Shown: piece by piece, positions 3,021-14,397 of the stretch
How positions within the stretch are numbered: position 1 is the first letter of the stretch
Layout of the letters: every line of letters begins with the position of its first letter
Assembly: GCF_003018255.1 (NCBI RefSeq)
Contig: NZ_CP027440.1
Direction: 5' to 3' (one strand)
From: Escherichia coli
Lineage (GTDB): Bacteria; Pseudomonadota; Gammaproteobacteria; Enterobacterales; Enterobacteriaceae
Length of the DNA stretch: 64,000 nucleotides
Position numbers and translations under genes: made by a program
Notes under the pieces: generated by a model
Told to the model about the DNA's origin: nothing
Databases searched by the model: none
What the model saw: the letters and a program-made list of their open reading frames with translations, nothing else

Positions 3021-4676
3021 ATGGATCGTAGACGATTTATTAAAGGTTCAATGGCTATGGCCGCCGTGTGCGGTACCAGCGGCATTGCTTCTCTTTTTTC
3101 TCAGGCGGCATTCGCGGCAGATTCTGATATTGCCGACGGGCAAACCCAACGTTTTGACTTCTCCATTCTACAGTCAATGGCGCACGACTTAGCGCAAACA
3201 GCGTGGCGTGGTGCGCCGCGTCCGTTACCTGACACTCTGGCGACAATGACGCCGCAGGCTTATAACAGTATTCAATACGACGCCGAAAAATCGCTCTGGC
3301 ATAACGTTGAGAACCGTCAACTGGACGCTCAGTTCTTCCATATGGGAATGGGATTCCGTCGCCGCGTTCGTATGTTTTCTGTAGATCCAGCAACACATCT
3401 GGCGCGTGAAATTCACTTTCGCCCGGAGTTGTTCAAATACAACGATGCGGGTGTTGATACCAAACAATTAGAAGGGCAAAGTGATCTCGGTTTTGCCGGT
3501 TTTCGCGTGTTTAAAGCCCCCGAACTGGCGCGCCGTGATGTCGTATCATTCCTCGGCGCGAGTTATTTCCGCGCGGTTGATGATACATATCAATACGGTT
3601 TGTCGGCCCGCGGCCTGGCGATCGACACTTACACCGACAGTAAAGAAGAGTTCCCCGACTTTACTGACTTCTGGTTTGATACGGTAAAACCGGGGGCAAC
3701 CACCTTTACCGTTTATGCGTTGCTCGATAGCGCCAGCATTACTGGTGCCTATAAGTTCACTATCCATTGTGAGAAAAGTCAGGTGATTATGGATGTGGAA
3801 AATCACCTGTATGCGCGCAAAGACATTAAACAGCTGGGCATTGCGCCGATGACCAGCATGTTCAGCTGCGGTACTAATGAACGTCGGATGTGCGACACCA
3901 TTCATCCGCAAATCCATGACTCTGATCGTTTGTCCATGTGGCGGGGCAATGGCGAGTGGATTTGTCGTCCGCTGAATAATCCGCAAAAATTGCAGTTCAA
4001 TGCTTACACCGACAACAACCCGAAAGGGTTTGGTTTATTGCAACTGGATCGTGATTTCTCCCATTATCAGGACATTATGGGCTGGTATAACAAACGCCCA
4101 AGTCTGTGGGTGGAGCCGCGTAACAAGTGGGGTAAGGGCACCATCGGCCTGATGGAAATCCCAACAACGGGCGAAACGCTGGATAACATTGTCTGCTTCT
4201 GGCAGCCAGAAAAAGCGGTAAAAGCGGGTGATGAGTTTGCATTCCAGTATCGTCTGTACTGGAGTGCGCAACCGCCTGTTCATTGCCCATTAGCGCGCGT
4301 TATGGCGACGCGTACCGGCATGGGCGGTTTCCCGGAAGGTTGGGCGCCAGGTGAACACTATCCCGAAAAATGGGCGCGACGTTTTGCCGTCGATTTCGTT
4401 GGTGGTGATCTGAAAGCTGCCGCGCCAAAAGGCATTGAGCCGGTGATTACGCTTTCCAGTGGGGAAGCGAAACAAATCGAAATTCTCTATATTGAACCCA
4501 TTGATGGTTATCGTATTCAGTTTGACTGGTATCCGACTTCGGACTCCACTGATCCGGTCGATATGCGGATGTATCTGCGTTGTCAGGGCGACGCTATCAG
4601 TGAAACATGGCTGTATCAGTATTTCCCGCCAGCGCCGGATAAACGTCAGTATGTTGATGACCGCGTGATGAGTTAA
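3021..4676 (+). CDS. opgD: Glucans biosynthesis protein D (periplasmic, Tat-exported)
   Basis: 551-aa ORF; N-terminal twin-arginine signal [10 protein letters not shown]...AFA; recognised as OpgD/MdoD. Confidence 0.9.
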
Positions 4677-11183: not shown

Positions 11184-11255
11184 GCGGGAAAACTATTTCG
11201 CAACGTCGCGCTTGTGGCTAAAATAGCCGCCATTTTTCAGCTACTGGATAAGAAT

Positions 11256-13217
11256 GTGACCGTATCTTCTCATCGACTTGAACTGTTAAGCCCGGCACGC
11301 GATGCCGCCATTGCCCGCGAAGCTATTTTGCACGGTGCCGATGCTGTTTATATCGGCGGCCCTGGTTTTGGTGCCCGTCATAATGCCAGTAATAGCCTGA
11401 AAGATATTGCCGAACTGGTGCCATTTGCCCATCGTTATGGTGCAAAAATTTTCGTCACGCTTAACACCATTTTGCATGATGATGAGCTGGAACCTGCGCA
11501 ACGGCTGATTACCGACCTCTACCAGACCGGCGTCGACGCGCTGATTGTTCAGGATATGGGGATTCTGGAACTTGATATTCCGCCGATTGAACTGCACGCC
11601 AGTACGCAGTGCGACATTCGTACAGTAGAAAAAGCGAAGTTCCTCTCTGATGTTGGCTTCACGCAGATTGTGCTGGCGCGAGAGCTGAATCTTGAGCAGA
11701 TCCGCGCGATTCACCAGGCCACGGACGCGACCATTGAATTCTTTATTCATGGCGCACTGTGCGTGGCCTATTCGGGTCAGTGCTACATTTCTCATGCGCA
11801 AACAGGGCGTAGCGCCAACCGTGGCGATTGCTCGCAGGCGTGCCGTTTACCATACACATTGAAAGACGATCAGGGGCGGGTGGTTTCCTATGAAAAACAT
11901 CTGCTGTCGATGAAAGATAACGATCAGACTGCCAACCTCGGCGCGCTGATTGATGCTGGCGTACGCTCCTTCAAGATTGAAGGGCGTTACAAAGATATGA
12001 GCTACGTGAAGAATATCACCGCCCATTATCGCCAGATGCTGGATGCCATTATTGAAGAACGTGGCGATCTGACGCGTGCTTCATCAGGTCGTACTGAACA
12101 TTTCTTTGTTCCATCGACGGAAAAGACTTTCCACCGTGGTAGCACAGATTATTTTGTGAATGCCCGTAAAGGCGATATTGGCGCGTTCGATTCGCCGAAA
12201 TTTATCGGCCTGCCGGTGGGTGAAGTATTGAAAGTGGCGAAAGATCATCTCGATGTTGCCGTTACCGAGCCACTGGCAAATGGCGATGGCCTGAACGTGA
12301 TGATTAAACGTGAAGTCGTCGGCTTTCGTGCCAATACGGTCGAGAAAACCGGAGAAAATCAGTACCGCGTCTGGCCCAATGAAATGCCAGCAGAGTTGCA
12401 CAAAATTCGCCCGCATCACCCACTAAACCGTAATCTTGATCATAACTGGCAGCAGGCACTGACAAAAACCTCCAGCGAACGTCGGGTGGCGGTAGACATT
12501 GAACTGGGCGGCTGGCAGGAACAACTGATTCTGACCCTCACCAGTGAAGAGGGTGTCAGCATCACGCATACGCTGGACGGGCAGTTCGACGAAGCCAATA
12601 ACGCCGAAAAAGCAATGAACAATCTAAAGGATGGTCTGGCAAAACTGGGGCAAACCATCTATTACGCCCGCGATGTGCAAATTAATTTGCCGGGTGCGCT
12701 GTTTGTACCAAACAGTCTGTTAAACCAGTTCCGCCGTGAAGCCGCCGACATGCTAGATGCTGCGCGTCTTGCCAGTTACCAGCGCGGCAGCCGTAAACCG
12801 GTTGCTGATCCTGCGCCGGTTTATCCGCAAACGCATTTGAGTTTCCTCGCGAACGTTTACAACCAGAAAGCGCGTGAATTTTATCATCGCTATGGTGTGC
12901 AACTGATTGATGCGGCGTATGAAGCGCATGAAGAGAAGGGCGAAGTCCCGGTGATGATCACTAAGCATTGTCTGCGCTTTGCCTTCAATCTGTGCCCGAA
13001 ACAGGCGAAAGGCAATATCAAAAGCTGGAAGGCGACGCCAATGCAACTGGTTAACGGCGATGAAGTATTAACGCTAAAGTTTGATTGCCGCCCATGCGAG
13101 ATGCACGTCATTGGCAAAATCAAAAATCACATACTGAAAATGCCGTTACCGGGAAGCGTAGTGGCATCCGTAAGTCCGGATGAGCTGCTGAAAACTTTAC
13201 CGAAGCGAAAAGGGTAA
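11256..13217 (+). CDS. rlhA: Peptidase U32-family protein; 23S rRNA 5-hydroxycytidine synthase RlhA (YdcP)
   Basis: ORF 11214..13217 (GTG); start set at GTG 11256 to give 653 aa; alternative start 11214 possible. Confidence 0.8.
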   Translation: MTVSSHRLELLSPARDAAIAREAILHGADAVYIGGPGFGARHNASNSLKDIAELVPFAHRYGAKIFVTLNTILHDDELEPAQRLITDLYQTGVDALIVQDMGILELDIPPIELHASTQCDIRTVEKAKFLSDVGFTQIVLARELNLEQIRAIHQATDATIEFFIHGALCVAYSGQCYISHAQTGRSANRGDCSQACRLPYTLKDDQGRVVSYEKHLLSMKDNDQTANLGALIDAGVRSFKIEGRYKDMSYVKNITAHYRQMLDAIIEERGDLTRASSGRTEHFFVPSTEKTFHRGSTDYFVNARKGDIGAFDSPKFIGLPVGEVLKVAKDHLDVAVTEPLANGDGLNVMIKREVVGFRANTVEKTGENQYRVWPNEMPAELHKIRPHHPLNRNLDHNWQQALTKTSSERRVAVDIELGGWQEQLILTLTSEEGVSITHTLDGQFDEANNAEKAMNNLKDGLAKLGQTIYYARDVQINLPGALFVPNSLLNQFRREAADMLDAARLASYQRGSRKPVADPAPVYPQTHLSFLANVYNQKAREFYHRYGVQLIDAAYEAHEEKGEVPVMITKHCLRFAFNLCPKQAKGNIKSWKATPMQLVNGDEVLTLKFDCRPCEMHVIGKIKNHILKMPLPGSVVASVSPDELLKTLPKRKG

Positions 13218-13308
13218 AACGCCAGTTTTCTGGTTACTCACAACTCATCAAATCTGCATGATATTGCCTGCCGGGTAAGGCGTCATGCCGCATCCGGCAA
13301 CAAATGAC

Positions 13309-13539: not shown

Positions 13540-13760
13540 CCTGCCACCTTTTTCTTACCTTTTGTCGCTATGATGCCGATCGTTTCTTGAGGTTATTATT
13601 CAGTTTTGCAAATTAGCGCAAAGAAATTCTGGAATCTTCCTTCCTGATTTTGCATTGCATTCTGCCGTTGCGGCGATTTAGTGCTATTTTCGAGCAAATT
13701 ACACACGGAGGTAAACACTAATGTTTACTTTGTTGATATACTCAGCGGCAGGGAGGCGAT

Positions 13761-13937
13761 GTGAAACAAAGCGAGTTCAGACGTTGGCTCGAATCTCAGG
13801 GCGTCGATGTGGCGAATGGCAGCAACCATTTGAAACTCAGGTTTCAAGGGCGACGCAGTGTCATGCCGCGTCACCCCAGTGATGAGATAAAAGAACCATT
13901 GCGTAAAGCAATCCTGAAGCAACTCGGTTTAAATTAA
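13761..13937 (+). CDS. hicA: HicA mRNA interferase toxin (type II TA)
   Basis: 58-aa GTG-initiated ORF (VKQSEFRRWLESQGV...LKQLGLN) translated by hand; below ORF-track length cutoff; immediately upstream of hicB. Confidence 0.8.
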   Translation: MKQSEFRRWLESQGVDVANGSNHLKLRFQGRRSVMPRHPSDEIKEPLRKAILKQLGLN

Positions 13938-13959
13938 TCGCCATAAGAAGGTTAATGAC

Positions 13960-14397
13960 ATGCGAGAGACAGTCAAAATTATGCGTTATCCCGTCACTCT
14001 TACTCCTGCGCCGGAAGGCGGTTATGTGGTTTCTTTTGTAGATATCCCTGAAGCGTTGACGCAGGGAGAAACTGTTGCTGAAGCGATGGAAGCAGCAAAA
14101 GATGCCTTACTCACCGCATTTGATTTTTATTTTGAAGATAATGAGCTAATCCCGTTGCCTTCGCCATTAACTAACAACGATCACTTTATTGAAGTGCCTT
14201 TAAGTATCGCCTCTAAAGTATTGCTGTTAAATGCTTTTTTACAGTCAGAAATCACTCAGCAAGAGTTAGCCAGACGAATTGGCAAACCTAAACAGGAGAT
14301 TACTCGCTTATTTAACTTGCACCATGCTACAAAAATCGACGCCGTCCAGCTTGCGGCTAAGGCGCTTGGCAAAGAGTTATCACTGGTGATGGTTTGA
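13960..14397 (+). CDS. hicB: HicB antitoxin (N-terminal RNase H-like fold, C-terminal HTH)
   Basis: 145-aa ORF 23 nt downstream of hicA; alternative start at 13981 (138 aa). Confidence 0.85.
   Translation: MRETVKIMRYPVTLTPAPEGGYVVSFVDIPEALTQGETVAEAMEAAKDALLTAFDFYFEDNELIPLPSPLTNNDHFIEVPLSIASKVLLLNAFLQSEITQQELARRIGKPKQEITRLFNLHHATKIDAVQLAAKALGKELSLVMV

Follow-up and report, generated by a model that had tools for sequence, protein, structure and literature searches.

Positions 13761-14397 of the window, the 64,000-nucleotide stretch of Escherichia coli DNA that was analysed, almost certainly hold an intact copy of chromosomal hicAB, a type II toxin-antitoxin operon in which the toxin gene comes first. 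In E. coli this is an already known, textbook system, and the copy in the window is a normal one. The start of its antitoxin gene, hicB, is inconsistent among resources (138 vs 145 aa), and the upstream of the two ATG codons concerned merits an experimental check. K-12 HicA, a small mRNA interferase, is an RNase that acts independently of the ribosome and requires His23. The folded N-terminal domain of K-12 HicB binds HicA, covering this catalytic residue, and its C-terminal helix-turn-helix domain binds an operator, repressing the downstream promoter P2; when HicA is in excess, HicB comes off the operator, and a rise in toxin thereby leads to more antitoxin. RNase activity, neutralisation and operator binding would be expected of the pair in the window by analogy with this K-12 literature.

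Identity and chromosomal context of the locus

In the ORF listing, hicA (13761-13937, + strand) and hicB (13960 or 13981 to 14397, + strand) are adjacent, with the toxin gene first and with a gap from the hicA stop codon (13935-13937) of 22 nt to ATG 13960 and of 43 nt to ATG 13981. The hicA ORF comprises 58 codons from a GTG start to a TAA stop and appears only when the ORF size floor is lowered to 30 aa, at which setting the original prediction of a GTG-initiated toxin of 58 aa, below a cut-off of 60 aa, was reproduced; the coordinates predicted for the pair were also exact, stop codon included. ORF filters that demand at least 60 aa readily overlook a toxin gene of this size and start codon. 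Its translation, MKQSEFRRWLESQGVDVANGSNHLKLRFQGRRSVMPRHPSDEIKEPLRKAILKQLGLN, matched Pfam PF07927 HicA_toxin (34.5 bits, cut-off 27) over profile positions 3-58 of 58 and the PDB chain 6hpb_A, 'mRNA interferase toxin HicA' (E 1.7e-33, 55 of 58 residues identical), and the ORF is therefore not a product of chance. The window HicA has kept His23 (GSNH23LKL; codon CAT at 13827-13829), the one known catalytic residue of E. coli HicA (PMC8138530).

HicB showed two domains, an N-terminal PF15919 HicB_lk_antitox domain (32.8 bits, cut-off 27, residues 10-72) and a C-terminal PF01381 HTH_3 domain (31.4 bits, cut-off 23, residues 95-141), which place the toxin-binding region at about 13987-14175 and the DNA-binding region at about 14242-14382. 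Among PDB chains named 'Antitoxin HicB' it matched 6u0i_A (E 1e-87) and 6hpb_B (E 1e-83), with 96% identity to 6U0I/6HPB (139/145). The PDB matches to the window HicB were all E. coli chains (6u0i, 6hpb/6hpc), with none from Yersinia pestis or Burkholderia pseudomallei; no NCBIfam model matched HicA or HicB of the window, and an Rfam search returned nothing within the hicAB region. The alignment to K-12 hicA and hicB proposed with the original prediction gave these same identities, 55/58 for HicA and 139/145 for HicB.

The gene order rlhA-yncJ-hicA-hicB-ydcR is common to the window, K-12 MG1655, NEB10-beta and strain G12. A 941-nt query matched 5414 of the 5426 complete E. coli genomes, in which the genes are annotated hicA and hicB, with 94.9% identity to a K-12 derivative and 100% to strain G12; these genome matches, together with the family matches and the K-12 neighbours, identify the locus as the native chromosomal hicAB. 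The assignment to hicAB made in the original prediction thus stands on Pfam and PDB matches and on native K-12 gene context, and its description as a known system agrees with the solved structures and the published regulatory model for E. coli hicAB. An origin from a plasmid or phage was considered and rejected, as the window copy is chromosomal, plasmid-borne HicB relatives are below 60% identical to the window HicB once mislabelled chromosomes are set aside, and phage relatives are at most 57% identical. The K-12 operon (b4532/b1438; 6HPB, 6HPC, 6U0I) occupies the same locus with the same neighbours, order and gene lengths, and shares with the window His23, the GTG start, both hicB ATGs and the operator palindrome. 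However, the hicA-hicB spacer is 2 nt shorter in the window, and the Shine-Dalgarno sequence ahead of the upstream hicB ATG is stronger there (AAGAAGG, -6.0 kcal/mol) than in K-12 (AAAAAGG, -3.4 kcal/mol).

Some minor features of the neighbourhood were also observed. Between hicB and ydcR, strain G12 has an additional gene, a partial 'HicB family antitoxin' (117 aa; positions 3943-4296 of the retrieved locus), which looks like a tandem duplication beginning inside hicB and which the window lacks. In the rlhA-yncJ spacer, the flanking segment most divergent from K-12 (6.6%), positions 13269-13308 resemble Rfam naRNA4 only weakly (24.9 bits, E 0.096, where the gathering score is 59.5), and this stretch is probably a REP-like palindromic element. 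The mechanically called rlhA (ydcP) ORF at 11214-13217 begins at GTG 11214 and encodes 667 aa, which is a longest-ORF artefact, the RefSeq gene being 1962 nt (653 aa) with its start 42 nt downstream of that GTG.

The toxin start codon and the upstream regulatory region

A HicB scan restricted to one genome per species gave 14 full-length orthologous loci spanning seven genera (Escherichia, Citrobacter, Raoultella, Superficieibacter, Pantoea, Serratia and Brenneria). The hicA GTG is found at the same aligned position, 58 codons from the stop, in all 14. The Shine-Dalgarno sequence of the window, GGGAGG (13751-13756, + strand), lies 4 nt 5' of the GTG, and a GG.GG motif is likewise kept before hicA in every aligned locus, as GGAGG in 12 and as GGGGG in Citrobacter Awk 4 and NCU1. 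Conservation of the HicA protein begins at residue 1, and nucleotide conservation collapses 5' of that point with the exception of the operator. The window hicA has no alternative in-frame start upstream, and the next start downstream would cost 16 conserved residues. The frame that had been translated by hand in the original prediction is conserved in the orthologues of all seven genera, and that translation is sound because the GTG and a GGAGG Shine-Dalgarno sequence are kept across them.

Two other ORFs overlapping hicA were set aside. The first, of 53 codons, begins at ATG 13721 with a GGAGG 9 nt upstream and runs off-frame to hicA; it was rejected, since this ATG belongs to the operator palindrome and two Citrobacter loci have lost it, and in other genera the frame stays open for only 6-23 codons. 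The other, an antisense ORF at 13725-13922 (65 aa, TTG start), lies wholly inside the upstream region and hicA, where the + strand is already accounted for. In addition, a minimal ATG-TGA ORF (gATGTGAaa) at 13759-13764 overlaps the hicA GTG and uses the same Shine-Dalgarno sequence. It is present in Escherichia loci and absent from the other genera, where sequences such as GCAGTGA and GTAGTGA stand instead; that it might compete with initiation at the GTG and so lower toxin translation is pure speculation.

In the K-12 model of Turnbull & Gerdes 2017, as summarised in PMC11594946, PMC8138530 and PMC6957337, promoter P1 has a CRP-S site, needs CRP and Sxy and makes both proteins, and promoter P2, which HicB represses via the operator, is freed by excess HicA and gives HicB alone. 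The intergenic regulatory region between yncJ and hicA in the window (13540-13760, + strand) differs from K-12 at one of 221 positions (0.45%; at 13565), and the published P1/P2 architecture should therefore apply to it. Within this region lies a perfect 7+4+7 palindrome (GTAAACA-CTAA-TGTTTAC) at 13711-13728, which is likely to be the HicB operator (hicO), judging by its motif, GTAAnCAnnnATGnTTAC, which occurs at the same place in 13 of the 14 aligned loci from seven genera. It was missed by a repeat finder because its arms are only 7 nt long, the output of that search being limited to short, chance-like direct repeats inside hicA.

The putative -10 element of P2, the extended -10 sequence TGATATACT at 13734-13742 (+ strand), lies 19 nt 5' of the hicA GTG and was identified by eye and by alignment, in which it coincides with the TATAAT of Citrobacter and Raoultella orthologues. 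A transcription start about 7 nt past this element, predicted near 13749-13750, would leave the hicA Shine-Dalgarno sequence right at the beginning of the transcript, which would fit a P2 transcript yielding HicB only. A consensus promoter and terminator scan found no terminator and did not report P2, which was missed because it has no good -35 element.

The CRP-S site of P1 was less readily located. A search with the 16-mer core at up to three mismatches gave nothing in 13558-13760, and across the window gave fewer hits than shuffled sequences; the best score for the 22-mer consensus was 12/20, at 13604-13625. The hicAB locus is also unmentioned in Cameron & Redfield 2006. As the region is one base off K-12, any CRP-S site of K-12 is nevertheless present in the window.

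Two candidate starts of hicB

Both starts named as plausible in the original prediction are in frame and both are used in public records. The long form (13960-14397, + strand, 145 aa) corresponds to the ORF listing, the Pfam match and PDB 6u0i, in which the protein is 145 aa plus a tag, and to many metagenome gene calls. The short form, MRYP... (13981-14397, + strand, 138 aa), is that of RefSeq PGAP, the curated K-12 MG1655 record NP_415955.2 and PDB 6hpb/6hpc. A search of the literature, retapamulin start-site mapping included, found no experimental mapping of the hicB start.

The upstream ATG is clade-specific, occurring in all Escherichia, Citrobacter and Raoultella loci at exactly 21 nt before the MRYP ATG (18 nt in one variant), and every locus that has it also has a purine-rich Shine-Dalgarno sequence 6-7 nt away, with a predicted free energy of -3.4 to -6.5 kcal/mol. 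More than ten distinct extension peptides were found across the loci, every one in frame and free of stops, including MRETVKI, MRGTVEI, MRESQII, MRALPET, MRDFTEI, MRDFENP, MRGVPKI, MRDLEKI, MRDFEKI and the six-residue MREFEI, and the changes among their codons include the synonymous pairs CGA/AGA (Arg2) and ATT/ATC (Ile7). On these comparisons the seven-codon extension behaves like coding sequence.

The main alternative is that HicB is made solely from ATG 13981, as annotated, and that the upstream ATG and its purine tract have been kept for some other reason, for instance as a standby site or through chance retention in close genera. All 14 orthologous loci have ATG 13981, which is moreover the sole option in Pantoea, where an in-frame stop lies two codons 5' of it, and in a Salmonella prophage copy, where an in-frame TGA lies 9 nt 5' of it; since the MRYP ATG is universal and these stops block an upstream start, 13981 is the ancestral start. 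Its use by both the curated K-12 record and PGAP speaks for the alternative, as does the ability of 138-aa HicB to form the HicAB complex crystallised with HicA (6hpb), and in the more distant orthologues the MRYP start suffices with hardly any Shine-Dalgarno sequence. The seven-residue extension is, moreover, variable in sequence and predicted to be disordered. In an AlphaFold2 model of the 145-aa protein (pLDDT 87.5), residues 1-5 scored below 50, and the strands at 9-16, 22-26 and 34-36, the helix at 39-60 and the strand at 75-78 scored above 90; with the first strand beginning at residue 9, the extension is placed by the model outside the HicB fold, which accounts for the 138-aa construct working structurally.

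The initiation signals point the other way. ATG 13981 is preceded only by GAGA, 13 nt away (-3.0 kcal/mol), whereas ATG 13960 is preceded at a spacing of 6-8 nt by AAGAAGG (13945-13951, + strand), whose predicted duplex with the 16S 3' end reaches -6.0 kcal/mol, and in the stretch that includes both starts the RNA has less predicted structure than shuffled sequences (z +1.6). A ribosome initiating at 13960 would read straight through 13981, and the upstream ATG, its 21-nt distance, the open frame and the Shine-Dalgarno sequence have persisted through protein divergence of about 25-30%. Initiation from 13981 alone is, on this balance, a somewhat doubtful explanation. Since P2 transcripts would leave hicA untranslated, hicB needs a ribosome-binding site of its own, and the sole good one, AAGAAGG, serves ATG 13960, so that the 145-aa form is probably made in vivo. 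That 13960 is used as a start at all in the Escherichia, Citrobacter and Raoultella clade is judged reasonably probable from the sequence comparisons, and the chances that it is the main hicB start appear about even; the 138-aa form is possibly made alongside the longer one. If the 145-aa form is native, the K-12 annotation and the residue numbering of the structural work would need a small correction.

Comparison with more distant orthologues suggests how the upstream start may have arisen. The Pantoea, Serratia, Brenneria, Superficieibacter and Salmonella prophage copies resemble the window in having a 58-aa, GTG-initiated HicA, a two-domain HicB (135-138 aa) and the operator motif. What sets them apart from the window is a pair of tandem operators around a near-consensus promoter, which in the Salmonella copy takes the form TTGACA ... 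TATAAT flanked by two tandem operator palindromes, and the lack of the upstream hicB ATG. The Salmonella enterica contig (retrieved locus L025, positions 1-1017) carries hicAB just downstream of a phage antiterminator-Q gene, and this adjoining gene marks that copy as prophage-borne. Between hicA and hicB these same five groups have a conserved, stable GC-rich hairpin, (A)ACCAGCCC-TCCG-GGGCTGGTT (CCAGCCC-TCCG-GGGCTGG), with a predicted free energy of -25.6 kcal/mol (z -2.0), located in retrieved-locus numbering at 1455-1476 of L014 and 554-575 of the Salmonella locus L025 and found also in L010 and L015-L018. The hairpin is absent from Escherichia, Citrobacter and Raoultella, and at its position the window has instead the Shine-Dalgarno sequence and ATG of the seven-codon extension, in unstructured RNA.

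The outgroup hairpin resembles the internal terminator hairpin of hicA(T)B on the IncI2 plasmid p45, a toxin-first operon with a HicB-repressed promoter and an internal intrinsic terminator, in which a GC-rich hairpin immediately 5' of the ribosome-binding site of hicB reduces the amount of HicB compared with HicA (PMC11878559). The window, by contrast, has no such hairpin and no terminator-like site, and the opposite effect, favouring antitoxin, would be expected. A possible explanation for these differences is that the lineage of Escherichia, Citrobacter and Raoultella exchanged the GC-rich hairpin for a Shine-Dalgarno sequence and a new in-frame ATG 21 nt before the ancestral start, a 'taming' step by which antitoxin translation would have been raised independently of hicA and which fits the HicB-only P2 transcript. 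The analogy with p45 suggests that the chromosomal locus of the Escherichia type may have shifted in favour of making antitoxin. The joint reading, in which the hairpin was replaced in the clade, this was a taming step and E. coli natively makes HicB mainly in its 145-aa form, is held to be evenly poised; if it is true, the 138-aa annotation and the constructs made from it lack the native N-terminus of HicB. Among other toxin-first systems, HicB of Yersinia pestis HicA3B3 and of Burkholderia pseudomallei HicAB represses via palindromic operators that overlap the promoter, the Burkholderia protein (BpsHicB) having RHH DNA-binding domains as against the HTH of E. coli HicB, and only for E. coli has a double promoter been demonstrated in detail (PMC11594946).

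Allele divergence and loss of the toxin gene

The divergence of the window from K-12 is uneven along the locus. At the nucleotide level it reaches 5.65% in hicA and 7.3% in hicB, as against 1.7-2.6% in the flanking yncJ, rlhA and ydcR and 0.45% in the promoter spacer, a distribution suggesting that the hicAB allele was imported or diverged long ago, whereas the regulatory region ahead of it is strongly conserved. The window allele was matched at 99% or above by only 75 of the 5414 matching genomes. The protein differences from K-12 amount to H29Q, C40S and S58N in HicA and six residues in HicB.

Loss of hicA is common in the species and beyond it, and the window operon was therefore also weighed as a possible decaying, non-functional remnant, its HicA carrying three substitutions. 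Among the complete E. coli genomes, about 1185 of 5414 (~22%), including ST131, match about half of the query or less, and those sampled (compare E. coli HS13-1) have a deletion of about 443 bp, from about 13716 to 14158 in window coordinates, which runs from inside the operator palindrome to mid-hicB and takes out the P2 -10 element, the entire hicA gene and the 5' half of hicB, with the HicA-binding domain of HicB. Other E. coli (compare Ec-042-T5-ESBL; H17-H19) have a 22-bp deletion at about 13877-13898 that frameshifts hicA and leaves hicB intact. In the window, however, the reading frames, His23, the GTG, the Shine-Dalgarno sequence, the operator and the promoter region are all intact, and the three HicA substitutions sit at positions that vary among intact orthologues (Q/H/R/N/K at 29, G/S/C/A at 40 and N/S/K/R at 58). 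Further, the 42 coding nucleotide differences from K-12 result in only nine amino-acid changes, which indicates purifying selection. Decay of the window copy is accordingly considered very improbable. At the species level, a broken hicA beside an intact hicB was found in four of the 14 loci (L006, L007, L011 and L018): hicA is frameshifted in Escherichia sp. E1V33 and Citrobacter sp. Cu233, E. coli SCPM-O-B-8794 has a stop at W9 of hicA and a 16-bp deletion of the P2 -10 element, and in Brenneria roseae HicA has the change H23Y and the operator has been lost.
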